Shown here: piece by piece, positions 21,016-36,726 of the stretch | How the letters are laid out: each line of letters opens with the position of its first letter | Position numbering within the stretch: position 1 is the first letter of the stretch | Source: an uncultured Alphaproteobacteria bacterium | Lineage (GTDB): Bacteria; Pseudomonadota; Alphaproteobacteria; RF32; CAG-239 | Length of the DNA stretch: 64,000 bases | Reading direction: 5' to 3' | Assembly: GCA_944390355.1 (NCBI GenBank) | Contig: CALXPT010000001.1 | Coordinates: 175,507-239,506 of the forward strand | Made by a program: the position numbers and the translations under genes | The notes under the pieces: generated by a model | What the model saw: only the letters and a program-made list of their open reading frames with translations | Database searches by the model: none | What the model was told of the DNA's origin: nothing

Positions 21016-21090
21016 GCCGCCGTAGCTCAGTGGTAGAGCACGTCATTGGTAATGACGGGGTCGTAAGTCCGATTCTTATCGGCGGCACCA
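21016..21090 (+). tRNA. tRNA-Thr (anticodon GGU)
   Basis: Manual fold. Acceptor GCCGCCG/CGGCGGC. D-arm GCTCAGTGGTAGAGC. Anticodon loop TTGGTAA. T-arm. Encoded CCA. Confidence 0.85.
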
Positions 21091-22623
21091 TTTATCAGTT
21101 TCTGGCGTTTTTAGTAGTTCATTGAATGGCTTAACTATTGAAAACGCTATATTTTTTCCTTCAGTTTTGCAGTCCGATAATATTAATTTCAAAATGTCTC
21201 TTTTTTCAGAAATAATCGGACTTTTTAAGAATTTTCCTACATTTGCTGCTATTTCCGCGATATTTGCTAGTATTTCATCAGTTTCAGCATCAATCTCAAG
21301 GTATTTATCCATATCTTTTTGTAGTTTTTCTTTTTCCATTTCAATTTCAGTTTTCAGTTCATTATACATTTTTTCATCACATTTGCCTTGAATATAGCCA
21401 CGGAACAAGGTTTTGAGCTGTTCATCTAATTGATTTACCTTGATAGTAATATCACGTTTGAGAGTCGCTGTATTTACTCTTTCTTCTTTAAGCTGCTTTT
21501 TGACTTCGGCTTTAATATTTTTTAGCATATCGTCACTAACGGCAAGAGGTAACGACAATTCTTTTTCAAGCTGGGCGAGGATTTTGGCTTCATTGATTGG
21601 TTTTTGTGAACATTTGGAACGTAATTTGTTACATTTTAAATAATTGTAAGAATGTTTATCGTCTTTTACTTTAGTTTCACAAGTCATTAAACTACCACAA
21701 CAACCACATCTGACTAAACCTGTAAAAATATATTGTTTATCTCCATAATATAATTTACTTGGTGCTCGTTTTCTTCCTTCCATAGTATCTTGGACAATTT
21801 GAAACAATTCTTTATCTATAAATAAAGGATAAGGATGTTTGTAAACTTTGCCTTTTTGCGTAAAATATCCAATGTAAAAAGTGTTTTTCAGTATATTTTG
21901 AACTTGAGCTCGACTAATTGTTTTATTTACACGACACATTTTTGAAGATAATCCTAAGGTTCTGGCTAGATTGGTAATGTCTTGCAAGGTTCGACCGCCT
22001 TTGGCATATTCTTCAAAAAGTCTTTTAACCTTTGGTGCTCGTTCTTCATCTATAATTATATTTGCTGGAGTCGATTTGGTTTTTGATATATTTAAATATC
22101 CTACCGGTGCACAAGATTGCCATTGTCCTGCTTCTCTTTTATATTCCTGACTGCGTAAAACATTGTCTCTTAAAGCACCCACATACATCTTAGCGGATAA
22201 AATTCCCATATCCCAACGTAAAATATCAGAAGAGGTACTGTCTTTATGCAAATAGAAACCTTCTTTATAAAAATGTATCTCTATTCTTCCTTGTTTACGC
22301 AAATCGTCTAATTCAACACATTCCTTATATCCTCTTTGCAATCTATCGACACAATTTACAACAATAGCGGTTTTGTGTTTTTGAGATTTTACAAACTCAA
22401 GCATTTCATAAAATTTTAAACGCCCACCTCGCGTTGAACTTTCAACAATAGAGAATTTATCAAGAATCTTAAATTTGTGATTGTTACAATAATCAACAAC
22501 CGTTTTAAGTTGTGCATCAATGGACGCTCCTTTCTTTTGTTCTTCCGATGAAACTCGAGCAAATATAACGGCTTGTTTACATTCTTCATCTGCAATATTT
22601 TGATATTTATTTCTTTTAGACAT
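21076..22623 (-). CDS. Large serine recombinase (island integrase)
   Basis: 515 aa. N-terminal resolvase catalytic domain (VIFARVSSEEQ with catalytic Ser). Recombinase domain, Cys-rich zinc ribbon (CGCCGSLMTC), C-terminal coiled coil. 3' end overlaps tRNA-Thr 3' end by 15 nt. Confidence 0.85.
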   Translation of the reverse strand: MSKRNKYQNIADEECKQAVIFARVSSEEQKKGASIDAQLKTVVDYCNNHKFKILDKFSIVESSTRGGRLKFYEMLEFVKSQKHKTAIVVNCVDRLQRGYKECVELDDLRKQGRIEIHFYKEGFYLHKDSTSSDILRWDMGILSAKMYVGALRDNVLRSQEYKREAGQWQSCAPVGYLNISKTKSTPANIIIDEERAPKVKRLFEEYAKGGRTLQDITNLARTLGLSSKMCRVNKTISRAQVQNILKNTFYIGYFTQKGKVYKHPYPLFIDKELFQIVQDTMEGRKRAPSKLYYGDKQYIFTGLVRCGCCGSLMTCETKVKDDKHSYNYLKCNKLRSKCSQKPINEAKILAQLEKELSLPLAVSDDMLKNIKAEVKKQLKEERVNTATLKRDITIKVNQLDEQLKTLFRGYIQGKCDEKMYNELKTEIEMEKEKLQKDMDKYLEIDAETDEILANIAEIAANVGKFLKSPIISEKRDILKLILSDCKTEGKNIAFSIVKPFNELLKTPETDKWCRR

Positions 22624-23229: not shown

Positions 23230-24228
23230 TTGAGGAATATTGTGTGGAACAATTTTAGATTTATAGATTTATTTGCAGGTATTGGTGGAATAAGGCTTGG
23301 CTTCGAAGCTGTTGGCGGTCGTTGTGTTTTTTCTTCAGAATTTGATGAGGATGCTTGTAAGACATACGAAGCTAATTTTGGAGAACATCCATCTGGTGAT
23401 ATTACAAAAATAAATGCCGCAGATATACCAGACTTTGATATTCTTTTAGGCGGATTTCCTTGTCAAGCCTTTTCTATAATTGGAAAAAAAGAAGGATTTG
23501 CAAATGAAACTTGTGGGACTTTGTTTTTTGATATTGAACGAATATTAAAAGAAAAACGACCAGCTGCATTTATGCTAGAAAATGTAAAAAATCTTACGGC
23601 ACATGATGGCGGAAAGACATTTAAAATTATAAAAGAACATTTAGAACATTTGGGGTATCATATATACGCAAAGGTTTTAAATGCTATAGACTTTGGTGTG
23701 CCACAAAATAGAGAGCGTATAATAATCGTGGGTTTTTTAGAAAATGTAAATTTTCATTTTCCAGTACCTGTCTCAATTGAAAATCGCAAAGTATTAAAAG
23801 ATATATTAGAGCAAAATGTTGATAAAAAATACTATGTGAATGACAAAATTAAAAAGTCTAGATTGGAGAGACTAAAAGACAAAAATTATCCTAAACCTTA
23901 TATTTCTCATGAAAATATGGCAGGTTCTGTTACTCCACATCCTTATTCTTCTGCTTTAAGAGCTGGAGCATCAGCAAATTATATATTAATTAATGATGAA
24001 AGACGTCCTACTGAAAGAGAAATGCTAAGAATACAAGGCTTTCCTGATAGTTTTAAGATTGTACTTCCATATAGTAAAATAAAAAAGCAATGTGGAAACT
24101 CCGTTGCTGTCCCCGTTATTCAAGCTGTTGCTCGAGAAATGATTAAAGCTTTAACTTCACCAACAAGGATAAAAAACAATTCTAGCAAGAGTTCTTGTGA
24201 TTATTTAAAACAAGGAGTTTTATTATGA
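23230..24228 (+). CDS. DNA cytosine-5 methyltransferase
   Basis: 332 aa. Motif I FAGIGG, motif IV GFPCQAFS, ENV motif. Start TTG 23230 or GTG 23242 after GAGGAA. Confidence 0.85.
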   Translation: MRNIVWNNFRFIDLFAGIGGIRLGFEAVGGRCVFSSEFDEDACKTYEANFGEHPSGDITKINAADIPDFDILLGGFPCQAFSIIGKKEGFANETCGTLFFDIERILKEKRPAAFMLENVKNLTAHDGGKTFKIIKEHLEHLGYHIYAKVLNAIDFGVPQNRERIIIVGFLENVNFHFPVPVSIENRKVLKDILEQNVDKKYYVNDKIKKSRLERLKDKNYPKPYISHENMAGSVTPHPYSSALRAGASANYILINDERRPTEREMLRIQGFPDSFKIVLPYSKIKKQCGNSVAVPVIQAVAREMIKALTSPTRIKNNSSKSSCDYLKQGVLL

Positions 24229-25277
24229 GTATATACGATGATGCCAAAAAGGCATTAGACACAGTATTAAACAAATCAAGAGTACATTTATACAAACCGA
24301 TTCAAATTGCTGAAATTTTATATCATGATCGTATATACAAAGATATAAATCTTCTGAATTTAGAAGATTACAGAAATAAAAGTAAAAAATGGCGAGATGA
24401 TATATGTATTCAATTATTAGGTAGGGTATGTACTAGTAGTGCAAAATTCCAAGACAATTTGTTTGAAACTAACGCTCTTCCTCCAAAATTTATCAATGCA
24501 CTAGGCATAAAAAACAGAGAAACACATGGAGCTATTGAAGCATATATATACAACAAATTTATAGCAAAACACAGTCAATTGTCCTCGGCATTATCGTACT
24601 GTATAGATTCGACTATTAGCACTTTTGATGTTAAGCATTTAATAGATTCATTTTGGTGTGAACCTGGACTTAAGCGTAGCTTAGATAAAATTTATGAAAT
24701 TATCGTGTATGCATTATTTGCAACATTAGTGGAAATTTTGGAATTTAAAGTTCAAGTACATGTAGAAAAAAAGCATTTAGACTTACTAGATGATTTTTCT
24801 GAATTTGCACAAAAAGTGATGTGTATAGACTTTCAAAATCCCCAATATATTCAAGATGCAAGAGTGTATCGTGTCGGAGTGACAAATGCAGCCGATAGAG
24901 GTTTGGATATGTATTCTAACTGGGGACCTGCTATACAAATAAAGCACTTAAGTTTAGATGTCGAGCTTGCTGAAAATATAGTAAATAGTGTATCATCTGA
25001 TAGAATAGTAATTGTTTGTAAAAATGCAGAAAAAGATGTTATTTTATCTCTTCTAACTCAGATAGGTTGGAAAAGTAAAATACAAAGTATTATTACAGAG
25101 AACAACTTAATTAATTGGTACGAAAAGGCATTGCGAGGAAAATTTGCTAAAATTATCGGCCAAAAATTATTAGACCGTTTAAGAGATGAAATTATCAATG
25201 AATTTCCTCCCATTAATAATATTCCTGATGTTATAAAAAATCGTCATTATGATAAGATATCAATAGAAATGTTATAA
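24225..25277 (+). CDS. Putative Type II restriction endonuclease partner of the C5-MTase
   Basis: 350-aa ORF overlapping MTase stop (ATGA). No fold-level motif confidently seen. Confidence 0.45.
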   Translation: MSIYDDAKKALDTVLNKSRVHLYKPIQIAEILYHDRIYKDINLLNLEDYRNKSKKWRDDICIQLLGRVCTSSAKFQDNLFETNALPPKFINALGIKNRETHGAIEAYIYNKFIAKHSQLSSALSYCIDSTISTFDVKHLIDSFWCEPGLKRSLDKIYEIIVYALFATLVEILEFKVQVHVEKKHLDLLDDFSEFAQKVMCIDFQNPQYIQDARVYRVGVTNAADRGLDMYSNWGPAIQIKHLSLDVELAENIVNSVSSDRIVIVCKNAEKDVILSLLTQIGWKSKIQSIITENNLINWYEKALRGKFAKIIGQKLLDRLRDEIINEFPPINNIPDVIKNRHYDKISIEML

Positions 25278-25639: not shown

Positions 25640-25909
25640 ATGTTAAAAGATTTTGAAAACTGGTTGCTAAATAATAATTACAGACCTACCACCGCTTTTG
25701 ATTATCAAGGAAGAATTGAAAGATTATGTCGTGCTGAAGGTTATACTTTGTCTCATTTGGTTGAAAACATTGCTTTGATTTTACCTGAATATGAAATTAA
25801 CGGTAAAAAATCAAGTTATGGTAAAAGAAGCCATACTTCAGTTAGACAAGCCTTAAGACGTTTTAAAATGTTTTTGATATCAAATAAATTAATTGAAAGT
25901 GCAAACTAA
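25640..25909 (+). CDS. Small hypothetical protein
   Basis: Strong RBS AAGGAG before ATG 25640 (ORF-track start 25583 less likely). Stop overlaps next start (ATGA). Confidence 0.4.
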   Translation: MLKDFENWLLNNNYRPTTAFDYQGRIERLCRAEGYTLSHLVENIALILPEYEINGKKSSYGKRSHTSVRQALRRFKMFLISNKLIESAN

Positions 25910-26226
25910 TGACTGATATCAAAACATTAAATGATAACTTTAGAAGAACCTTTAGCGGTGGAGGAGTTATGTTAACTTGTGGAATTAATGCCAAAAATCA
26001 AAGTGAACAGGCTGAAATTCTTAATCAAGTTAGATGTTTTAATAATTTTACCACCGCCAATGAGCCGTATAATGAACATGATTTTGGAAGTTTTAACTAC
26101 AAAGGAGAACAAATTTATTGGAAAATTGATTATTATGATAAAAATTATCAATTTTGTTCAGAAGATCCAAGTAATCCAAATATAACTAACCGAATTATGA
26201 CGATTATGTTATCTCACGAATATTAA
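25909..26226 (+). CDS. DUF3768-like small protein
   Basis: 105 aa. N-terminal pattern LNDNFRRTFSGGGVMLTCGI resembles the DUF3768 family common on plasmids/ICEs of alphaproteobacteria. Confidence 0.4.
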   Translation: MTDIKTLNDNFRRTFSGGGVMLTCGINAKNQSEQAEILNQVRCFNNFTTANEPYNEHDFGSFNYKGEQIYWKIDYYDKNYQFCSEDPSNPNITNRIMTIMLSHEY

Positions 26227-26330
26227 AACAATTTAGTCCGATTTGAGTAATATCAAGTCGGATTTTTTATTATTGATAATTTAACTTCTTAACATCAACG
26301 ACAACAAGTTATTTTAAACATCTCATTTTT

Positions 26331-26401
26331 TAACCCGTGGATACAATCGTTTTATTTGATATAGGTTTTATTACTTTTATTAAATTCGGATATCCACGGG
26401 T
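26331..26401. repeat. Inverted repeat AACCCGTGGATA ... TATCCACGGGTT (12-13 bp arms, about 46-bp spacer)
   Basis: Seen directly. Lies downstream of the HUH Rep gene. Candidate hairpin origin/nick region. Confidence 0.5.
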
Positions 26402-26460
26402 TGTTTATGGAGATATGGGATATAATTTTATAAGATATTTATGAAATTTCAAATAATTAA

Positions 26461-26487
26461 CCTAATTCTCAATCGGAATGAGGTTGT
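26461..26487. repeat. 27-bp imperfect palindromic site (AACCTAATTCTCAATCGGAATGAGGTT)
   Basis: Related to sites at 22743 and (inverted) 27960. Confidence 0.55.
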
Positions 26488-26662
26488 TTTTTATATCATA
26501 CTAACTTCACAATACAACTTTTGCAAAATTCAGCAGAAGTTAAACATAATAATACCTATTTACAATGTGTTATAACTTTTCAAAAGAATCTGATATAATT
26601 GTATTGTCGTGAATTTTGGGATTTGTAAACGGTTAAACTTCCATTATGATGTTTTTTATAAT

Positions 26663-27658
26663 TTAGTTTCTTTGAGGATTAAGATTAAATAAGTCTTCAG
26701 AAAAAATCATATGGTCATTATCAAATTTACCATTCCAATATATTTTTATTTCTTTCATACAATAATAAGTAACATTTAACAATTTTGGTTCAATTGGTTT
26801 TAAATTCATGCAATATGACGGTAAGTTTTCTCTCATCATTGCTTGAAAAATAGCATCTTGGAGTTCTTGTTCACTAAATCTTCCTCGATTAAATAATATA
26901 TGAAAATGCCAGTCCGAACTTATTCCATTTTCAGCAAATGCAATAAACCGAAGATGGTGATGCTCCCAATTGTTCATCAAACTCTTTTCAAATGCTTTCA
27001 TAATGTTTCTTAAATGACTAATTGAGTTATATAAATCTTTAGTCTTCTTGTTTTCTGGTAGTTGTACAGTTAAAAAATGAGTCGGTTTATATTCTTTAGC
27101 AATCCATTTATTTAATCTTTTTTTTATCGTGGAAGAATTTGTTGCCTTTTTTCCTTGAGACACAGATTTTATGATATTACCCATTTTTTGACTGTAGGAA
27201 TCAGTGTTTTTATTTGGTATAGGTTCGATTGCTTTTATATCATTTTGTAGTTCATGGGTTGTTTTAGGCTTGTTTATGCTCGTGTTTTGGTTAAGATTTT
27301 CATTATTAGCACATCTGGAGATATAAGAGAGTGTATTAACTATTTTCTGTATATAGTTTATTTTATTTTGCTTGAGTTTTTCATTATAAATACTCTTAAA
27401 TTTATTATAAAAACCATTTAATAAAGAAGAATTAACTAAATAATCCTTAAAAGAAATACCATATTCAATAAGAAAAGGACTCAATTTTACTTTATCAATA
27501 ACAGAAATTAATCCATATCTTCTTATAATACCTAAGACATATACATAATCATCAATACATCTTGTTGCATGACTTATTGACAATTTTAACATCTTGTTTT
27601 CTGTCATTATCTCTTGCAACCATATTCTTTCATATTTGTATTTATTCATTTTTATCAT
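26663..27658 (-). CDS. HUH-endonuclease (rolling-circle Rep/relaxase-like) protein
   Basis: 331 aa. HUH motif WHFHILF preceded by HLRFIAFAENG. Tyr candidates in YYCMKE. Flanked by inverted 27-bp sites and TTGTCGT repeats. Confidence 0.5.
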   Translation of the reverse strand: MIKMNKYKYERIWLQEIMTENKMLKLSISHATRCIDDYVYVLGIIRRYGLISVIDKVKLSPFLIEYGISFKDYLVNSSLLNGFYNKFKSIYNEKLKQNKINYIQKIVNTLSYISRCANNENLNQNTSINKPKTTHELQNDIKAIEPIPNKNTDSYSQKMGNIIKSVSQGKKATNSSTIKKRLNKWIAKEYKPTHFLTVQLPENKKTKDLYNSISHLRNIMKAFEKSLMNNWEHHHLRFIAFAENGISSDWHFHILFNRGRFSEQELQDAIFQAMMRENLPSYCMNLKPIEPKLLNVTYYCMKEIKIYWNGKFDNDHMIFSEDLFNLNPQRN

Positions 27659-27959: not shown

Positions 27960-28030
27960 AACTTCATTCCAAATAAGAATTAGGTTGTTGGGTTATTTTA
28001 TAAAAAAGTTATTGTCGTTAACGTCACGAA
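27960..28030. repeat. Composite site (27-bp palindrome inverted relative to 22743 copy, plus TTATTGTCGTTAACGTCACGAA); right direct repeat of the module
   Basis: 24-nt motif identical to 22776-22799. Confidence 0.6.
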
Positions 28031-28447
28031 CTTTTAACATCTGAATATCAAAGGTTGAAATCATTAAATGACATTGATGTCGGTTAATCAACTTTTGTAA
28101 AAATTTGCAGAAGTCTATTTGAAAAATAAAAATCAAAGAAGCTCTCTCGCACGCAAAGGCCTTGACTAAAATTCGCTTAACAAAAAAACTAATCTTATCC
28201 AGTATGGTACGGCATAGTATGGCAGTATGGTATCCATGGAGGGTGTAGATGTCGGGCATCCTTTATGGCGGTGGAGCTATCCCGTTATGCTTATGCCAGT
28301 CCGATATTAAAATAAAGAGACAAAGACGGTTAAATCCTTGCCTCTCTATATATCTGTGCTATACAGTTTTTGAACTCCGAAGTTATATTGTCGTGTTATT
28401 TGCCAAATCGGAGCGGTAAAAACTCAACCTGTGCGTAAGTTGATAAA

Positions 28448-28930
28448 TTAAAATAAATCAAGTTGCTGATCTTTTTCTATATGCTTAATATTTAAAATAG
28501 AATCTATTTGTTTATTATTTACAACCATACCATCAATAACTACAAAAAACTGTTTATTTAAATTTTTCATAAGCATTATATTATTTAATGTTCCTTTGCT
28601 TTCTCCATCCCATATCATTAATCCATAATCCGTGTCATTAGCCATCTGTTCATCTTTTAAAGTGTATAAATTACGACCTTTCTCATTATGCAAAGCATAG
28701 ACATTCTTAGTTTGCCACTGTCCTACATTGTTCCTTATAGTTTTACCTGCATAATATACAAAGACATTTTGATAATTTTTCTTAAACAAATATTTTTGAA
28801 TACTTAAATCAACCCCTTTAGCATCACCAACTAAAATGGTAATATTCTTAGATATAATATTATCAATTTTTTTTACCGCAGATAATGGTAATTTCTTTAT
28901 GCTAATAGATCCAGAAATAAAAACTTTCAT
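28448..28930 (-). CDS. SLOG/DprA-LOG-like Rossmann domain protein
   Basis: 160 aa. ILVGDAKGVDLSIQKY resembles the GxAxGxD motif of DprA/Smf/YpsA-type SLOG domains. Start overlaps PRTase stop (ATGA). Confidence 0.45.
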   Translation of the reverse strand: MKVFISGSISIKKLPLSAVKKIDNIISKNITILVGDAKGVDLSIQKYLFKKNYQNVFVYYAGKTIRNNVGQWQTKNVYALHNEKGRNLYTLKDEQMANDTDYGLMIWDGESKGTLNNIMLMKNLNKQFFVVIDGMVVNNKQIDSILNIKHIEKDQQLDLF

Positions 28931-29574
28931 TAATCAGAAATCCTTGTTTTGGTTAAGGTAAAAACAGATATGTTATTATACCCGTTTTCCTTTAAAGCAT
29001 CCACATAAGCTCTCAACGTATTTCCACTATCAAAAACATCGTCAAAAATAAGATAATTATTATCCTTATTCAACAAAGAATAACGGATTGAAAGAGAATT
29101 TTTAACTTGTGCATATTTATCTTGTTCATCAATATTTTTAATCTGTTCTATATTTGTGGTATCCAAAGCATTAAATAAAAATTGTTTATTAAAAGTTTCT
29201 GATATTCCTTTGGCTACTTCAAATACAGGTTGAAAAGGACGAGCCTTATTAGATGGTGGAACTATTAAAATTGTATCTATGTTTGCTATAAATTTCTTAA
29301 AATCTTCCGAATTTGATAACAATTCAAGAATCCTTGTTACAGCAGAAAGATTATAACGATATTTTAATTGGTAAACCAAATTCCCCATTTCAGTTCTTTC
29401 TGTATCAAATTTACCAACTCCATTTGAGTATTCTTCAACGAGCACACTTCTTAATGTATGTTTATCGTATGCAAAACCTAAATTCCAAGGACCATATAAT
29501 GCAATCATATTTGAATTCTCCGAGTAATTTCTTTCAGTATACATATAAAAAAAATAAAAGCAATATTTACACAA
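28930..29574 (-). CDS. Phosphoribosyltransferase (type I PRTase) domain protein
   Basis: 214 aa. PRPP-binding motif YLIFDDVFDSGNTL (compare VLLVDDVLTTGSTL in the housekeeping comF-like gene at 48170). Confidence 0.65.
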   Translation of the reverse strand: MCKYCFYFFYMYTERNYSENSNMIALYGPWNLGFAYDKHTLRSVLVEEYSNGVGKFDTERTEMGNLVYQLKYRYNLSAVTRILELLSNSEDFKKFIANIDTILIVPPSNKARPFQPVFEVAKGISETFNKQFLFNALDTTNIEQIKNIDEQDKYAQVKNSLSIRYSLLNKDNNYLIFDDVFDSGNTLRAYVDALKENGYNNISVFTLTKTRISD

Positions 29575-29627
29575 GTATTATACAGTATGATTAGTTTAAT
29601 GAAATAATTCTAATTTTCGACTTAATT

Positions 29628-29791
29628 TCTTAAAATCGTCATAGAAATTAGTCCGATAATTGCATAGTATCTCGCACCATTTTTAAGATAGCACCTTTTA
29701 AGGTGCTTTTTTGCTATATAAACCAAGCCTTTCATTCAGTCCGATTTTATATATTTTGAAATTAGCGATTTTTGTAAACTTATCGGACTTT
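29628..29791. repeat. Inter-cassette repeat element copy A (140-bp core with TIRs AGTCCGATAA/TTATCGGACT, GCACCATTT core, internal hairpin+T-run, third AGTCCGAT half-site)
   Basis: Core 29650-29789. Conserved upstream CTTAAAATCGTCATA. Copies at 31729-31868, 34206-34565 (with 221-bp insert), 36345-36598 (truncated). Confidence 0.65.
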
Positions 29792-29910
29792 GAATGAAAA
29801 AAAACAATTTCTAAGATTTTTTTATTGCATAAAGGTGTGCGAAAATTAAAAATATAAATAGATAAATGCATTTTTTTTAATATAATAAATAATATTTAAT
29901 AGTCTGTTGG

Positions 29911-30807
29911 ATGATGATAGAAGAAAACGTTAAAAATATTTTTAAGAAAAATTTCTTACCATTTTATGAAGAAAGCAATGGTGAGTTGTTTTTGGGTGAC
30001 TGCATACAAAATATGAAAAAAATCAAAGACAATACTATTGATTTAATTTTTGCAGATCCTCCATATTCTATAAAAAAAGCCAAATGGGATACATTCAAAA
30101 GCAGAGAAGAGTATATCAAATGGTCCATAAAGTGGATTAAAGAAGCTCATAGGATATTAAAAGATACAGGAAGCCTTTATATTTGTGGATTTTCTGAAAT
30201 TTTAGCAGACCTTCATTTTCCTGCAATGAAGTATTTTAAAAATTCTCGTTGGTTAATTTGGTATTATAAAAACAAAGCTAATCTAGGAAAGGATTGGGGG
30301 CGAAGTCATGAAAGTATCATGTGCTTAAGAAAGTCAAATAATTATACTATTAATATTGAGAATATTCGTATACCTTATAATGCTCATACATTAAAGTATC
30401 CGGAACGTTCTCAAGCTACAAGTAGTCAATATGGAAACGGAAAAAAATATGATGGCTGGTCACCCAATCCTGCAGGTGCAAAGCCTAAAGATGTCATTGA
30501 AATTCCAACAACATGCAATGGAATGGGCGAAAAAACGCCTCATCCGACACAAAAACCTGAAGAATTGTTAAGAAAAGTCATTCTTGCTTCTTCTAATGAG
30601 AATGATATCATTTTGGATCCATTCTCAGGCAGTGGAACAACTGCTGTTTGTGCAAAACAGCTAAAGCGCCGCTGGATTGGTATTGAACAATGTCCGGAAT
30701 ATCTCGAATGGTCAATAGCTCGCTTAAAAAAGGTTCCTGATAAAAATATTGAAGACTGGATTAAATATGATAAAGATGTTTCAAAAAGAAGGGAAGCTAT
30801 TAGATGA
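29911..30807 (+). CDS. N6-adenine/N4-cytosine DNA methyltransferase (beta class)
   Basis: 298 aa. DPPY catalytic motif (FADPPYS) followed later by AdoMet motif DPFSGSGTT. Confidence 0.85.
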   Translation: MMIEENVKNIFKKNFLPFYEESNGELFLGDCIQNMKKIKDNTIDLIFADPPYSIKKAKWDTFKSREEYIKWSIKWIKEAHRILKDTGSLYICGFSEILADLHFPAMKYFKNSRWLIWYYKNKANLGKDWGRSHESIMCLRKSNNYTINIENIRIPYNAHTLKYPERSQATSSQYGNGKKYDGWSPNPAGAKPKDVIEIPTTCNGMGEKTPHPTQKPEELLRKVILASSNENDIILDPFSGSGTTAVCAKQLKRRWIGIEQCPEYLEWSIARLKKVPDKNIEDWIKYDKDVSKRREAIR

Positions 30808-31691
30808 AAACACTATGGGAAATTATGTCTTGGGTATCCCAAAAAGAAAAATTTACAAATATCAAAGACTATATTAATTTTGCAAAAGTTTATTTAGAAT
30901 TCATTTCCTCAGAACTACAGGCTGAGATTGTTGCTAAAAACGAAAATAATTATAAATTTTTGCAATATAGAAGAGATGGTGAATATAATATCACCAGACC
31001 AATTAATGGAAACTTATTTATGAGTTCTGATAAATATGATGAGTTTTCAAAGAGATTTATTGAAATATTAAATAATATAAAAAATATTAAACATGACTTT
31101 GCATTAAGAAACGATATTAATAGCTTTATTTATACAACGCAACAATCTATTGGTTGCGCCTTAGATGCTCTTCCTTCGTCTAAAACAAATACATCAAGAA
31201 AAGTTAATGGAGATTTATTTGAAAGATTAATGCAGCTTATCATTGCTCAATTAGGTTTTGATATAACATCTGAAACTTTGGGAGTAAAAATTCCTCAATC
31301 AAATGAAATAATGAATTACCAAAATGATATAGAAATCAAAATTAAAGGAGAAATTGTTGCCATTGGCTCTGTCAAAACTTCAAGTAAAGATCGAATAGAT
31401 AAAATTTTTCTTGATAAACTAATGTATAATAGACTAACGGCTACAGAAACGCCTCATTTTGCGATTTTTTTACATGATGTTCAACGAGCTGGAAAAGAGC
31501 CCGAATATAAAATAGGTCAAACATTTTTAACAGGACACTTTAAGGCCTATACAATAGGTTTAAATCCCCTTGATGGAGTATATTACTGTGATTTACGACC
31601 GATTATGAAAACAGATAACTTATTGAAAAGACATATTCAATCTTTAGATTGTCTTCTTTGTCAAGATATATGGAATTTTGTTTCTAAATAA
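30804..31691 (+). CDS. Putative Type II restriction endonuclease (PD-(D/E)xK-like)
   Basis: 295 aa. Overlaps MTase stop. Candidate D...DIEIK motif. Confidence 0.45.
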   Translation: MKTLWEIMSWVSQKEKFTNIKDYINFAKVYLEFISSELQAEIVAKNENNYKFLQYRRDGEYNITRPINGNLFMSSDKYDEFSKRFIEILNNIKNIKHDFALRNDINSFIYTTQQSIGCALDALPSSKTNTSRKVNGDLFERLMQLIIAQLGFDITSETLGVKIPQSNEIMNYQNDIEIKIKGEIVAIGSVKTSSKDRIDKIFLDKLMYNRLTATETPHFAIFLHDVQRAGKEPEYKIGQTFLTGHFKAYTIGLNPLDGVYYCDLRPIMKTDNLLKRHIQSLDCLLCQDIWNFVSK

Positions 31692-31728
31692 TTTTCTTAC
31701 TCAAAAGCTTAAAATCGTCATAGTTTTT

Positions 31729-31868
31729 AGTCCGATAATTGCACGGTATCTCGCACCATTTTTGATAATGCACCGATTTAGGTGCTTTTTTTGTATATAT
31801 TCCAAGCCTTTCAGAGAGTCCGATTTTTGAGTTTTTAAAATTAGAGATTTTTGATGAATTATCGGACT
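31729..31868. repeat. Inter-cassette repeat element copy B
   Basis: Same TIRs, GCACCATTTTT core, hairpin GCACCGATTTAGGTGC+T-run. Extra AGTCCGATAAAA half-site at about 31915. Confidence 0.65.
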
Positions 31869-32055
31869 TTTTGTGCAAACGCTAAGAAAATCAAGCTTTT
31901 TAGCATTTCAAATTCTAGTCCGATAAAATTTAATATAAACAATCTCTCAAACGAACATTTTTAGAACATTATTGTTGATTTTTAACTTTTTTACTTTATG
32001 ACTTGTAATAAGTATGGTAATTTTCTTAATAGAATCACTGTTAATGAGTTGAAAT

Positions 32056-32895
32056 ATGAAAAAAAATAACTTGGTCGTTCCTTTTGTTAAATGGGCTGGT
32101 GGTAAAAGGCAATTACTTCCAGAACTGATAAAACGTGTTCCGAAGTTTACTACATATTGTGAACCTTTTGTCGGAGGTGGTGCGCTGTTCTTTTATTTAC
32201 AACCGAAAAAAGCCATTATTAATGATTTTAACAAGGATTTAATTAATACTTATATCACAATACAAAATGATGTTGAATCGCTGATACAGCATTTATCCAC
32301 TTACAAAAATGATTCTGAAAGTTACTACAAAATAAGAGAGTTAGATAGAACACCTTTATTTCATAGAATGTCTGCTACAGAAAAAGCTTCCCGACTTATT
32401 TATCTTAATAAGACATGTTATAATGGACTATTTAGAGTCAATAGTATGGGTGAATTTAATTCTCCCTTTGGAAGTTATAAGTCTCCGAATATTGTCAATG
32501 AACCAACTCTTCGTGCTATTCATAATTATTTTCAAAATGCAGATGTTACATTTCTTAGTGGGGATTTTGAAGCAGCTGTTAAAGGATTAAAGAAAGGAAC
32601 ATTTGTTTATTTTGATCCTCCTTACGATCCTGTTTCCGCATCTTCAAATTTTACAGGTTATACTAATCTTGGATTTGGAAAACAAGAACAGAGAAGATTA
32701 AAAGAAGTATGTGACGAATTAAATGCAAAAGGTATTAAATTTTTGCTGTCTAATTCTGCTACTGATTTTATTTTAGACCTATATAAAGAATATAATATTG
32801 AGAAGATATCCGCTAAAAGAGTTATAAATTCCAATGCTAACAATCGCGGTAATGTTGATGAGGTTTTAATAAGAAACTATGACGAAAATAAATAG
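32056..32895 (+). CDS. Dam-like N6-adenine DNA methyltransferase (alpha class)
   Basis: 279 aa. N-terminal FVKWAGGKRQLL and DPPY motif. Confidence 0.85.
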   Translation: MKKNNLVVPFVKWAGGKRQLLPELIKRVPKFTTYCEPFVGGGALFFYLQPKKAIINDFNKDLINTYITIQNDVESLIQHLSTYKNDSESYYKIRELDRTPLFHRMSATEKASRLIYLNKTCYNGLFRVNSMGEFNSPFGSYKSPNIVNEPTLRAIHNYFQNADVTFLSGDFEAAVKGLKKGTFVYFDPPYDPVSASSNFTGYTNLGFGKQEQRRLKEVCDELNAKGIKFLLSNSATDFILDLYKEYNIEKISAKRVINSNANNRGNVDEVLIRNYDENK

Positions 32896-34159
32896 TTATT
32901 GGAACAATATTTTTGAAAAATATAAAATATTAGATCAAATTGATAAAGACGGAAAATTTGAAATTTCAGCAAGTCAGATAAATGAGTTTAAAGAAGCTCG
33001 TCTTATGACGAAATTTGATAATGCATCTCAATTGCCGCGAATTTTTACGGAAAATGAATTATCAATTTTACCGATAACACGCGGTAACTATGTAATTGCT
33101 CCGATGGATATTTTTCACAAATTTCCAATGATTGAATCTTCGAATGAAATTTCGTATTTTAATTTTCCTGATAATATACAAACATTATTGCCGGATAATA
33201 TCAATAGTGAATCTTTAGCTTTAAATGCTGTTTATATTTCAGAAATTTTAGAAGATTTTATACAAGATGAAAAATTATTGCCTACCATTAATGGTAGAAT
33301 GTCATCATCATTATTTAATTTTAACATTAAAAACACAAAAACGGAAAAAATCTTAAATATAAATGTAAACAATGCACAGATAGAAATAGATGCAGGTTAT
33401 GAAGGTGTAGAATCTTTTTCTATTATTGAAGCTAAATCGCATTTTGCTGATGACTTTGTTATTAGGCAACTATATTATCCTATGCGTCTATGGTCTAGTA
33501 GGGTAAGAAAAAATATTAAAACCATATTCATGGTTCATACTAATGGGATTTACTATTTGTATGATTTTAAATTTAATGACTTAAATAATTATAATTCATT
33601 GACTTTAAATAAATTCAAGAGATATAGCTTTGATAAATTGGAAATTAATATTGAAGACATCGAAAAGATAGTCTCAAATACGCATTTAGTAAATGAACCG
33701 CAAATTCCTTTTCCTCAGGCTGATAGTTTTGAACGTATTATAAATTTATGCGAACTATTAAATCAAAGAGAGTTAACAAAAGATGACGTAACAATGGAAT
33801 ATGGTTTTGATAAAAGGCAAACAGATTATTATTTAAATGCGTGCAAATATTTAGATTTGGTTGAAGAAAGAGATAGTAAATTTTTATTATCATCAACGGC
33901 AAGAAGAATAATGCAACAGTCGCCAACAACAAAACAGTTAGCTTTTGCAAAGCAAATACTGAGTCATCCTGTTTTTAGTGAGGTGTTGAAAAAACAATTG
34001 GAAACAGGTAAAGTTTTATCAAAACAACAAATAATTGATATAATGAAGAAATATCCTTTATTTAATGTAAAAACATATAACACTTTTTATAGAAGATCAT
34101 CAACCGTAAGCTCTTGGATTGATTGGATAACTTCATTGACATCAAATACTACTGTTTAA
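32879..34159 (+). CDS. Putative Type II restriction endonuclease partner of the Dam-like MTase
   Basis: 426 aa. Overlaps MTase 3' end. Candidate IEIDAG...IIEAKS PD-(D/E)xK motif. Confidence 0.45.
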   Translation: MTKINSYWNNIFEKYKILDQIDKDGKFEISASQINEFKEARLMTKFDNASQLPRIFTENELSILPITRGNYVIAPMDIFHKFPMIESSNEISYFNFPDNIQTLLPDNINSESLALNAVYISEILEDFIQDEKLLPTINGRMSSSLFNFNIKNTKTEKILNINVNNAQIEIDAGYEGVESFSIIEAKSHFADDFVIRQLYYPMRLWSSRVRKNIKTIFMVHTNGIYYLYDFKFNDLNNYNSLTLNKFKRYSFDKLEINIEDIEKIVSNTHLVNEPQIPFPQADSFERIINLCELLNQRELTKDDVTMEYGFDKRQTDYYLNACKYLDLVEERDSKFLLSSTARRIMQQSPTTKQLAFAKQILSHPVFSEVLKKQLETGKVLSKQQIIDIMKKYPLFNVKTYNTFYRRSSTVSSWIDWITSLTSNTTV

Positions 34160-34205
34160 TTAACTCCAGATTATATGCCAACTGCTTAAATTCATCATAG
34201 TTTTC

Positions 34206-34565
34206 AGTCCGATAACTGCATAGTATCGCGCACCATTTAACACAAAAGCCTCCGTTTGGGGGCTTTTGTGTTAAATGCATGAACGCTATTGAAGCGGACT
34301 TACGGGGGCAGAGTAAGTCCGGAGCGGGTAGTTGGTGAAAACAAGTGTAGAGCTTTAGCGAATAGCTTAGCGAAACACGAAGTTTGAACCTTACGGCGCG
34401 AAAGGGACCCGTTGGCTCAAAGCCAATGGGAATATACATTCTTATCGGCGGCACCATTTTTAGAATGCACCGATTGAGGTGCTTCTTTTATATATATTCC
34501 AAGCCTTTCCAAAAGTCCGATGTTGAGAATTTTTAATTTGATAATTTTTGTAAACTTATCGGACT
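34206..34565. repeat. Inter-cassette repeat element copy C, interrupted by a 221-bp segment that ends with a copy of the tRNA-Thr 3' end (attR-like)
   Basis: TIRs at 34206-34215 and 34556-34565. Insert flanked by GCACCATTT direct repeats (34230-34238 and 34451-34459). ATTCTTATCGGCGGCACCATTT at 34438-34459 equals tRNA 21072-21093. Confidence 0.65.
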
Positions 34566-36232
34566 TTTGTATGATTATCTAAGAACTCAACAAAATCTTT
34601 CGCTTGTTCCGGCGTTACATTTTTATTTTCATATTTTTGCGGAGGATAAAAGTTTTCTACTAGAGATGTTGGCGCTCTCTTGATATTTCCCCAATATGGA
34701 GCTTTACCGCTTAAATAATCATAAACACTCATTCCTTTTGAATCTTTCAGATTTATGTTCGCCCCTTTTTCTACCAGATATTTTGCTATATCCAGATGTC
34801 CTTCTTGCACGGCATACATCAAGGCCGTACGTTCTCCATTTGCAATGCAAATATGTTCCCAACAATTATTATCTTCTAAATTTCCCTTCTTTGTTTGAGC
34901 ATTGATATCCGCTCCGGCTTCAAGCAAAATTTTTACGCTTTCCATAAATCCATATTGAGCTGCATACATTAAAGCTGTTTTGCCAAATTCATTTTGAGCA
35001 TTGACATCCGTATTTAAGCCTATGCAATTCAATTTTTTTTCATTATTAGGGCAAGCTTCAATCAATACCTTTAATGCATCCGGTCGGTGTATGCTTACCA
35101 TTAAAATTTCATCTTTTTGATCCGGCGTTTCAGGTTCTGTAAAGACTTCCCCTTTTATTTTCTTATTTTCAATCCACGTTTTAATTTCCTGAACAGGAAC
35201 TCCTGAAAAAATCTTATAACGCAACGTGTCTTCATCAACAATAGAACTCTGTGCTGCCATTGGAATCATCGTGTAACGAGCATAAGAGTAAGCTTTTTCT
35301 TCAGAAACCTGAAATGTTTTTACATAATGTTTTGTTAGTTTCTCAACAGCTTGATTAAAGCCTATTCCATGTTTTATAACTTCATCAAAATATTTATAAT
35401 TCGGATATGATTCCATTGCCCATGCTTCAAGAGGCAAAGCTTGCAAATATTTTTGATCCGGATAATAACGACGCTCAAAGTTCCAATCCGGATCATAATG
35501 GCTTAAAATATTTTCATAAATATTTTTTGCCATATAAACATAACGTATTGAGCCTGGGTTATAAAATTCGAGTTCTCGTTGAATATAGTTATAATATTCT
35601 TCAACATCTGCTGGAAATTCATATTGAGGATACTGACTGCAATCTGAAATATCTAAAGTTTCTGCACCGTGACCACCACCAGCACTATCTAAAATAGCTG
35701 TTAAATGCAGTTTTTGTGCTGTTTTGCATGGGACAACAATTTTCCATGGAACATAACGCATATTTGTACTTTGCTGGTTCCATATATTGAAAAATTTTGA
35801 AAAATTAAACACTCCTACTTCTATTAAACAACTTAAATCTTTGTAACATTTCATATAATCATTCTTGATTAACTCTTCATTTTTATGCTGATACATTCTA
35901 TAAAACGGAGAATCAGGAACAACTTTTTCATATTGTGCAATGACATCTGTATGTAAGCGATGAGCTATTTTCTCAAATTCTGGCGTATTTACTTTTTGAG
36001 GTTCATATATACTAAGCAATATTAAATATTCGATAGCCGCAGAGTTATTTTTATCTGCTAATTTTTTTAAGTCTTTTATGGCTTGTTGGGGATTATCTTT
36101 TATATGTTTTACAATATTTTCATACTGTTTATCAATATCTTGTTCTATTTGTTCAGCTGTAACAAGAGAGGAGAAAAAAAGAAATGCAAAACAAATCATA
36201 AAAATTATTTTTTTAGCTCGAAACAAAATCAT
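34556..36232 (-). CDS. Secreted ankyrin-repeat protein
   Basis: 558 aa. Signal peptide. At least three ankyrin repeats (GKTALMYAAQYGFMESVKILLEAGADINAQ; GERTALMYAVQEGHLDIAKYLVEKGANINLKD). Confidence 0.8.
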   Translation of the reverse strand: MILFRAKKIIFMICFAFLFFSSLVTAEQIEQDIDKQYENIVKHIKDNPQQAIKDLKKLADKNNSAAIEYLILLSIYEPQKVNTPEFEKIAHRLHTDVIAQYEKVVPDSPFYRMYQHKNEELIKNDYMKCYKDLSCLIEVGVFNFSKFFNIWNQQSTNMRYVPWKIVVPCKTAQKLHLTAILDSAGGGHGAETLDISDCSQYPQYEFPADVEEYYNYIQRELEFYNPGSIRYVYMAKNIYENILSHYDPDWNFERRYYPDQKYLQALPLEAWAMESYPNYKYFDEVIKHGIGFNQAVEKLTKHYVKTFQVSEEKAYSYARYTMIPMAAQSSIVDEDTLRYKIFSGVPVQEIKTWIENKKIKGEVFTEPETPDQKDEILMVSIHRPDALKVLIEACPNNEKKLNCIGLNTDVNAQNEFGKTALMYAAQYGFMESVKILLEAGADINAQTKKGNLEDNNCWEHICIANGERTALMYAVQEGHLDIAKYLVEKGANINLKDSKGMSVYDYLSGKAPYWGNIKRAPTSLVENFYPPQKYENKNVTPEQAKDFVEFLDNHTKVR

Positions 36233-36344
36233 GTTATGTCCCTCTAATTATATCATTAATTTTAGCTTAGATTGAAAACATTAAAATTTTATTATGATAA
36301 GTTTTAACTTTCCTTATTATTTTCTTAAAATCGTCATAAAAATT

Positions 36345-36598
36345 AGTCCGATAACTGCATAGTATCGCGCACCATTTAACACAAAAGCCTCCGTTTGGGG
36401 GCTTTTGTGTTAAATGCATGAACGCTATTGAAGCGGACTTACGGGGGCAGAGTAAGTCCGGAGCGGGTAGTTGGTGAAAACAAGTGTAGAGCTTTAGCGA
36501 ATAGCTTAGCGAAACACGAAGTTTGAACCTTACGGCGCGAAAGGGACCCGTTGGCTCAAAGCCAATGGGAATATACATTCTTATCGGCGGCACCATTT
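36345..36598. repeat. Repeat element copy D (left TIR + 221-bp segment + second tRNA-Thr 3' end copy); island right boundary
   Basis: 36320-36600 is identical to 34180-34460 (about 280 bp). ATTCTTATCGGCGGCACCATTT at 36577-36598. Degenerate half-site AAGTCCGAT at 36652. Confidence 0.65.
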
Positions 36599-36726
36599 TT
36601 GATATTTCCGCCTAAATGGTGGATTTTTTTATTTTTAAATAAATGCTTGTCAAGTCCGATTAATTTATTATTTGACTTTAACAAATACTATATGTAGGGT
36701 ACTAAATATAGAGCACGGAGAGGACT

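Follow-up and report, generated by a model that had tools for sequence, protein, structure and literature searches.

The window analyzed here, a stretch of 64,000 nucleotides from an uncultured alphaproteobacterium, contains a two-gene operon that encodes a phosphoribosyltransferase (PRTase) and a SLOG-fold protein and that represents a compact, distinct, and minimal variant of the ShosTA/PsyrTA class. The operon is probably a toxin–antitoxin or abortive-infection module of this class, in which the PRTase would be the toxin and the SLOG protein an antidote; docked to the sliding clamp, the antidote would act in trans, either on DNA or at the replication fork. A first reading made from the letters of the DNA (the sequence-only reading) had considered the pairing neither named nor experimentally characterized. 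At the level of the class this was wrong, as ShosTA and PsyrTA (RqlHI) both consist of a PRTase toxin and a DprA-like antitoxin and have been tested experimentally.

The operon is made up of two minus-strand ORFs within 28448-29574 (ORF list of the window), and its layout is as follows:

28930..29508, minus strand: PRTase gene, 192 aa, ComF-like type I phosphoribosyltransferase, the putative toxin
29509..29574, minus strand: 5′ extension of the ORF starting at TTG 29574, probably an untranslated leader, absent from most homologs
28448..28930, minus strand: SLOG-fold gene, 160 aa, the putative antidote
28312..28349, minus strand: terminator-like hairpin ∼100 nt 3′ of the SLOG stop codon, a pattern match only

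The PRTase gene had initially been extended to TTG 29574, which results in an ORF of 214 aa. This extent is too long; translation almost certainly starts at ATG 29508, giving a protein of 192 aa (28930-29508), because all 26 aligned homologs (191–205 aa, nearly all of them 191–192 aa) have their first residue at the position of this ATG and because a Shine–Dalgarno sequence, GGAGAA, lies 7 nt 5′ of it. The 90%-identity cluster of the PRTase comprises twelve forms of 192 aa, plus one of 214 aa and one of 204 aa. The junction between the two genes reads GAT-TAA-TG, where the TAA stop codon and the ATG start codon share a single base (TAATG), and not the four bases of the ATGA overlap described before. 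Translational coupling of the two genes is plausible.

In agreement with the sequence-only reading, the first protein is a PRTase of type I whose PRPP loop is intact. Two of its regions are conserved:

29014-29055, minus strand: PRPP-binding loop YLIFDDVFDSGNTL, PRTase residues 152–165
29224..29253, minus strand: PPi-loop region SNKARPFQPV, with R90, Q93, P94, and V95 invariant in 26 homologs

The PRPP loop keeps D156, D157, S161, G162, and T164 in all 26 homologs; a conserved arginine after strand 2 has been described as common to ComFC-like PRTases. Pfam model PF00156 matched the protein with an E-value of 1e-5, slightly short of the model threshold. The best match among the PADLOC models was PsyrT (E 1.3e-10), covering profile positions 526–688 of 689, that is, its C-terminal PRTase domain, followed by ShosT (E 2.9e-9) and, weakly, the type III-A retron PRTase model (PRTase_III-A; E 6e-4); relatives of the PRTase reach an E-value of 9e-18 on PsyrT. 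The NCBIfam ComF family was matched with an E-value of 8e-7, and TIGR00201 with 29 bits, far short of the equivalog cut-off of 233. A housekeeping purine-salvage PRTase was rejected on the grounds that the scores on equivalog models were far under their cut-offs. The AlphaFold2 model of the protein (pLDDT 90.0) is a single domain, for which the top Foldseek matches were ComF/ComFC from H. pylori (7p0h; E 4e-6, the best), PurR, and ShosT (8zvc; E 8e-5). The window PRTase contains no cysteine and thus lacks the N-terminal four-cysteine zinc finger of ComFC.

For the second protein, the AlphaFold2 model (pLDDT 90.7) has a clear SLOG-type Rossmannoid fold with glycine-rich loops and superposes on ShosA, DprA, and YpsA, which bears out the fold proposed from the letters of the DNA. 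The GDAKGVD motif noticed at that stage is present, and a second conserved loop lies downstream of it:

28808..28828, minus strand: GDAKGVD motif, residues 35–41, the glycine-rich loop of the SLOG fold, bearing a GxD signature
28589..28612, minus strand: WDGESKGT loop, residues 107–114, the second conserved SLOG loop

In 40 sequences, G35, D36, A37, G39, and D41 of the first loop are invariant; GxD/E is the substrate-binding signature of the YpsA clade. The second loop reads WDGESKGTLNN, with W107, D108, S111, G113, and T114 invariant. In LOG enzymes, the PGGxGTxxE motif carries a glutamate three residues past the conserved threonine. At this position the SLOG protein has an invariant asparagine, N117, and a LOG-type phosphoribohydrolase was rejected because the glutamate is absent.

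In profile searches, the SLOG protein rose above no Pfam or PADLOC threshold. The DprA model PF02481 remained sub-threshold (E 0.14; 11.8 bits versus a cut-off of 29.6), as did TIGR00732, also DprA (11.4 bits versus 191), and the Pfam search, which included YpsA (PF06908), gave no match above threshold. Likewise, the PADLOC models, among them ShosA and PsyrA, did not match the SLOG protein or two longer relatives at E ≤ 1, and PDB sequences yielded nothing meaningful in single-sequence or profile searches. An hhalign comparison of the SLOG family with a YpsA domain (itself scoring E 2.9e-21 on PF06908) resulted in a probability of 2%. On sequence grounds, the protein represents a separate SLOG family, and it is no closer, by any measure applied, to ShosA or DprA than to YpsA. 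The models suggest a link to ShosA at the level of the fold only, no stronger than that to YpsA, LOG-like, and MoCo-carrier proteins, because a match to PADLOC models or PDB sequences is lacking and the hhalign probability with YpsA is so low. The family is basic, with a median pI of 9.4.

The SLOG protein ends in a short motif, which had not been among the observations of the sequence-only reading:

28451..28465, minus strand: C-terminal QLDLF, candidate β-sliding-clamp binding motif of the SLOG protein

The published consensus for binding to the β clamp is QL[S/D]LF, more broadly QxxLF, with positions 1, 4, and 5 being critical, and PolC has QLSLF at its own C-terminus. QLDLF is identical to one form of this consensus and is a candidate clamp-binding motif. 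In 93 of 117 full-length close SLOG homologs, the pattern Q-x-x-[LMIF]-[FLI] forms the very C-terminal end; the commonest tails of the SLOG proteins are QLELF, QLDLF, QLNLF, and QLSLF, and a variable linker of ∼20 residues with low model confidence precedes them. By cluster counts, the QxxLF tail is a feature of a clade and not universal, because the strict pattern is kept by 14 of the 150 best-scoring cluster representatives and most do without it. Alternatively, given that ShosA is unstable by virtue of its C-terminus, the tail may be read as a C-terminal degron.

The operon lies in an island with a GC content of 0.26–0.30, compared with 0.42–0.45 in the flanks, and starts with a tRNA-Thr, at its edge, and the large serine recombinase. 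Besides the operon, the island carries the following:

21076-22623: large serine recombinase, ∼6 kb from the PRTase/SLOG pair
23230-25277: Dcm methylase and HaeII endonuclease, a restriction–modification (R-M) module
29911-31691: N4/N6 methylase and an unassigned ORF, a methylase-led module
32056-34159: D12 (Dam-type) methylase and a DUF6996/6997/7226 protein, a methylase-led module

The island also contains a DUF3768 gene as well as a gene for a Rep-like protein, which lies next to the pair. With three methylase-led modules in a low-GC island, the placement of the pair in acquired, AT-rich DNA among three R-M systems, as first proposed, is upheld; the serine integrase is indeed in the same island, but at a distance of ∼6 kb it is “next to” the pair only in a loose sense. 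On other metagenome contigs, PRTase copies ∼99% identical to that of the window reside, each with the 160-aa gene after it, on a ∼9-kb recombinase/DUF3768 element that carries no R-M genes, and the PRTase/SLOG pair is therefore part of the backbone of the element, with the R-M modules being local additions. The best explanation is that the operon is carried by a small integrative element inserted at tRNA-Thr. Exactly the same two proteins as in the window, both annotated as hypothetical by NCBI, also occur in gut MAGs labelled “Azospirillum sp.”

A word-indexed search retrieved 552 unnamed SLOG homologs of ∼160 aa, 54–99% identical and from very different phyla, and a profile search (E ≤ 1e-3) extended the family to 2,349 clusters at 50% identity. 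When genomes were scanned for SLOG relatives, using one genome per species, 247 stretches were found to encode one. At 58 of the best 80 of these 247 loci, a near-full-length PRTase of the same family (defined as an HMM score of at least 100 bits) was located directly upstream in the same orientation and in most cases overlapped the start of the SLOG gene; because of this frequency, the pairing is not due to chance. In the remaining loci of the best 80, the SLOG gene was intact next to PRTase fragments only (9 loci) or without a PRTase (13 loci). The SLOG core was more conserved than its PRTase partner in every one of the 49 comparable loci, with a median identity to the window proteins of 43% (SLOG core) as opposed to 33.5% (PRTase). 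Treponema has an orphan SLOG gene amid housekeeping genes, in Bacteroidota an unrelated 115-aa gene precedes the SLOG gene instead of the PRTase, and Planktothrix plasmids encode a solo 121-aa SLOG protein among small unnamed genes. Many chromosomal copies of the pair are situated outside recognizable mobile elements.

Among the plasmid records of PLSDB, 101 contain the SLOG protein and 65 the PRTase; 55 of the 101 are conjugative plasmids. The pair adjoins a type II R-M system on an E. coli IncFII plasmid, where the homologs are WP_032635041.1 and WP_032635040.1, and rep on the Listeria plasmid pLI100, it is present on an Acinetobacter plasmid of 13.6 kb, and Klebsiella and Enterobacter plasmids carry the family as well. 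None of the phage records searched encodes the SLOG protein, and BFVD returned only generic small phage SLOG proteins with query-normalized TM-scores of 0.37–0.66. The neighbors of individual relatives include AbiJ-like and PIN proteins at one locus, an AAA ATPase and an S8 peptidase at another, and ParA, Arc, and an integrase at a third. A census of 119 neighboring ORFs from 22 genomes, which is qualitative because it is based on crude ORF calls and has no background control, yielded strong PADLOC matches to GajB, a CBASS TIR effector with TRIP13, type I methylases, DolB, IetA, SoFic, and several PDC candidates, as well as integrases, ParB, Fic, and ordinary metabolic genes. Competence genes were found neither in the inspected loci nor in this census. 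The expectation that homologous pairs lie beside defense and mobile-element genes, and not in a competence context, was thus supported.

Across the family, what stays constant is the SLOG core at the N-terminus and the PRTase encoded upstream; the variable part is the C-terminus of the SLOG protein. Longer relatives (∼275–315 aa), found in Alphaproteobacteria (including Bradyrhizobium), Dyella, and others, end in one common conserved sequence; in that of Bradyrhizobium, the only one scanned, it corresponds to the “addiction module antidote” HTH PF21716 (E 1e-20), and the PGAP name of a copy on a Xanthomonas plasmid is “addiction module antidote protein”. In other variants the domain is Abi_alpha (E 2e-14) or resembles HEPN_AbiU2 (E 4e-5), each variant being encoded after an overlapping PRTase gene of the same family. 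A PRTase–SLOG fusion, a YpsA–SLOG fusion, and a NADAR–SLOG fusion are each represented by a single cluster; a PRTase neighbor was looked for at the NADAR–SLOG fusion and is absent.

Both characterized members of the class share a toxin with a PRTase domain and an antitoxin homologous to DprA (Millman et al, 2022). For ShosTA (Kimelman, 2012; Millman et al, 2022; Pu, 2025; Yang, 2026), crystal structures and a proposed mechanism have been published. ShosT, a protein of 424 aa with a hydrolase domain at residues 1–164, binds PRPP and is not toxic when D331 and D332 are replaced (D331A/D332A); its effects are perturbed purine metabolism, filamentation, and DNA duplications. ShosA is an ssDNA-binding protein and failed to co-purify with ShosT, which led the authors to assign the system to type IV; the C-terminus of ShosA makes it unstable, and the system is triggered by T7 Gp0.7. 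According to a second study, ShosA is a dimer and binds RecA. The window pair shares with ShosTA the type I PRTase toxin domain with its acidic PRPP loop (D156/D157), but the PRTase lacks the N-terminal hydrolase/PPase (pyrophosphatase-like) domain of ShosT, the SLOG protein lacks the SAM domain of ShosA and any match to it at the sequence level, and the candidate partner is the β clamp instead of, or possibly besides, RecA.

The PsyrTA system (Sberro, 2013; Millman et al, 2022) was dissected genetically in its E. coli form, RqlHI (Russell & Mulvey, 2015). Toxicity of RqlH, a RecQ–PRTase protein of 698 aa, maps to the PRTase domain, which on its own is not toxic; the D663A exchange and a four-residue substitution in the PRPP pocket abolished growth inhibition, SOS induction, and filamentation. 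RqlI (400 aa) consists of a MoCo-carrier-like/DprA-like region and a C-terminal HTH, and rqlH is located upstream of rqlI. The window operon resembles this system in that the toxin gene precedes that of a SLOG (DprA/MoCo-carrier-like) antitoxin, and the HTH of RqlI has its counterpart in that of the longer relatives of the SLOG family. It differs in that the putative toxin, with 192 instead of 698 aa, has no RecQ-like helicase and in that the putative antidote, with 160 instead of 400 aa, has neither an HTH nor a match to PsyrA but ends in QLDLF.

YpsA-family SLOG proteins coupled to a PRTase are reported to have been described by Burroughs in 2015. A computational study noted a YpsA-family branch whose genes are paired with that of a PRTase (Brzozowski, 2019). 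The window protein has the GxD motif but differs from the YpsA family in the PF06908 and hhalign results. The pair of ComFC and DprA has in common with the window operon the ComF-like PRTase fold, the arginine after strand 2, the PRPP loop, and a partner of the SLOG/DprA fold. A competence ComF/DprA pair was nevertheless rejected because both the zinc finger and the competence context are absent; the window family is, furthermore, mobile, patchy in its distribution, and fused to Abi or antidote domains. The PRTase effectors of type III retrons are likewise defense-associated PRTases, as reflected by the weak PRTase_III-A match, but in the window reverse transcriptase and msr/msd RNA are both absent, and the PRTase is instead paired with a SLOG protein.

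From the domains, folds, motifs, pairing, contexts, and fusions described above, we infer a module that would operate as follows. The 192-aa ComF-like PRTase would bind PRPP and be the toxic component, perturbing nucleotide metabolism or DNA and thereby causing replication stress in analogy to ShosT and RqlH. The co-translated, basic 160-aa SLOG protein would be the antidote, probably not by simple sequestration of the toxin; more likely, with QLDLF attaching it to the β clamp, it would be active on DNA or where the fork is being replicated, or, alternatively, it might bind or process a nucleotide product of the toxin. A phage, or loss of the element, would disturb the antidote, either by shutting off its synthesis or by competing for ssDNA or the clamp, upon which the PRTase would arrest the cell, resulting in abortive infection or post-segregational killing. 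The module is best read as type IV-like.

That the PRTase may be a toxin is suggested by its matches to the PsyrT and ShosT toxin models and by the presence of ShosT structures among the top Foldseek matches, and also by the fact that the equivalent acidic residues of the PRPP loop are required for toxicity of both ShosT and RqlH. A toxin–antitoxin pair is further supported because the gene order (PRTase first, SLOG second, overlapping) equals that of rqlH and rqlI, because the PRTase decays or is replaced while the SLOG gene stays intact (22 of the best 80 loci), and because of the plasmid and island contexts. The antidote HTH of the long relatives, which parallels the C-terminal HTH of RqlI, argues for an antidote role of the SLOG protein. 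Its basic character and its higher conservation compared with the PRTase are what one would expect if the antidote had a conserved target in the host, and the conservation of QxxLF in close homologs supports docking to the clamp. Several points count against this reading. The PRTase domain of RqlH alone is non-toxic, and the window PRTase is essentially such a domain alone; with its Abi_alpha and HEPN-like fusions, the SLOG protein resembles a sensor–effector more than an antitoxin; in classical type II systems, the antidote is not typically the better conserved partner; and the SLOG protein is linked to ShosA by its fold only and matches neither the ShosA nor the PsyrA model, most of the 150 representatives lack QxxLF, and the census had no background control.

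The fusions to Abi_alpha and HEPN-like domains are also what keeps alive a model in which the PRTase, upon sensing of a phage, makes a PRPP-derived, nucleotide-like messenger, the SLOG protein senses this ligand in the way of Thoeris ThsA, and the variable C-terminus (clamp-blocking QxxLF, Abi_alpha, HEPN-like, or HTH) is the effector. The sequence-only reading had likewise considered that a nucleotide signal might be generated or sensed. Such signaling is unlikely, as the SLOG protein of the window has no effector domain beyond the five-residue tail, the closest characterized PRTases (ShosT and RqlH) are themselves toxins, decay of the PRTase alone next to an intact SLOG gene fits the loss of a toxin better than that of a signal generator, and the fused HTH is a domain of the antidote type. 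In a variant of the toxin–antitoxin reading, a base or nucleic acid would be phosphoribosylated by the PRTase, and the SLOG protein, acting as a glycohydrolase similar to LOG or NADAR, would reverse this at the fork, much as DarG does for DarT. This variant appears quite improbable: the glutamate of the LOG motif is replaced by the invariant N117, and the NADAR fusion is a single cluster with no PRTase neighbor. Moreover, we know of no catalytic activity of DprA, ShosA, or YpsA.

Features of both proteins could also point to a non-toxic accessory function, that is, a miniature ComFC–DprA-like duo that protects or processes the incoming or replicating ssDNA of a plasmid or element and recruits the clamp for synthesis of the complementary strand. 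ComFC is the best structural match of the PRTase, in line with its placement in the NCBIfam ComF family, and ComFC binds ssDNA and interacts with DprA in two species; the pair is common on plasmids, more than half of the records with the SLOG protein being conjugative, Rep-like genes adjoin it in the window and on pLI100, and no phage record contains it. It is set against this function that the four-cysteine zinc finger of ComFC is absent from the cysteine-free PRTase, that competence or transfer genes are not consistently adjacent, that many copies are chromosomal and outside recognizable mobile elements, and that the antidote-HTH, Abi_alpha, and HEPN-like fusions as well as the defense neighbors suggest a conflict system, all of which renders it very unlikely. 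Finally, the operon might be a replication-coupled immune module, in which a clamp-docked SLOG protein senses a nucleotide made by the PRTase or reverses a base or DNA adduct at the fork, with the interchangeable C-termini being alternative outputs; we regard this as rather unlikely. If true, the operon would not simply be a small ShosTA but a signaling or DNA-modification defense with the replisome as its platform.

PADLOC misses the family as a system because it has no model that fits the SLOG protein. The family is large and resides on common plasmids, which makes it easy to test. It presents the ShosTA/PsyrTA class in its most reduced form, with a PRTase of 192 aa that has no further domain and a SLOG domain of 160 aa. 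The clamp-type tail would link the putative antidote to the replisome and could clarify how the PRTase/DprA-like class works.

The low-GC island, the acquired AT-rich DNA that holds the PRTase–SLOG pair and three methylase-led R-M modules, extends from ~21 kb to ~38-40 kb of the window. One of its ends, at window 21016-22623, is marked by tRNA-Thr (21016-21090) together with a large serine recombinase gene, the two overlapping at the 3′ end of the latter. Features of the island are listed below.

21076-22623, minus strand: large serine recombinase gene, 515 aa
22711-22810, 26426-26485 and 27960-28040: short repeats, in direct and inverted orientation
25909-27658: DUF3768 gene and 331-aa protein, in the interval separating the Dcm/HaeII module from the pair
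29620-29800, 31699-31879 and 34457-34568: intergenic repeats of ~110-180 nt, 78-80% identical
30804-31691: 295-aa ORF, overlapping the end of an N4/N6 methylase gene
32879-34159: 426-aa protein with DUF6996, DUF6997 and DUF7226
34185-34461 and 36324-36600: 277-nt direct repeat, copies 97% identical
34556-36232, minus strand: ankyrin-repeat gene, 558 aa, between both copies of the 277-nt repeat

A backbone of ~9 kb recurs in near-identical metagenome contigs (L081-L086); it comprises a DUF3768 gene together with the pair and a serine recombinase. The match of the 331-aa protein of the window to REP_ORF2-G2P was weak. The short repeats share the core AACCTAATTC(C/T)CAAT(T/C)GGAA(C/T)GAGGTT. They border the Dcm/HaeII module and are grouped around the Rep-like gene, and they may serve the element as sites of recombination.

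Beside two of the methylases, candidate restriction enzymes are encoded. The 426-aa protein, composed solely of its three DUF domains, is probably an uncharacterised type II restriction endonuclease; its gene overlaps the end of that for a D12 (Dam-type) methylase. The 295-aa ORF, for which no Pfam match was obtained, is a candidate restriction enzyme of an orphan family. The intergenic repeats, each with a GC-rich hairpin and a T-run after it (e.g., 29690-29707), bracket both the PRTase operon and the R-M modules. These repeats may represent module boundaries or terminators, reused when cassettes are added. The ankyrin-repeat gene with its flanking 277-nt repeats looks like a unit that was recently duplicated or inserted; each repeat copy contains a 44-nt palindrome.

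Relatives of the SLOG protein also occur without a PRTase partner. In Bacteroidota MAGs (L008, 877-1679; L009, 526-1328), the QxxLF tail, the candidate β-clamp-binding motif, is missing from the SLOG gene, and an unrelated gene (115 aa) lies upstream where the PRTase would be expected; this gene may encode an alternative toxin partner. Plasmid p1 of Planktothrix agardhii (L098) carries a solo SLOG homologue (121 aa) within a same-strand row of small hypothetical genes, among them a DUF1273 (YpsA) gene. Such solo copies, present on five Planktothrix plasmids, might function as orphan antidotes or in anti-defence. In P0209 (L096, L097), the SLOG family domain carries an N-terminal NADAR fusion, with an IS21 helper gene adjoining and the PRTase absent; this fusion hints that the SLOG domain is linked to ribosyl-adduct removal.
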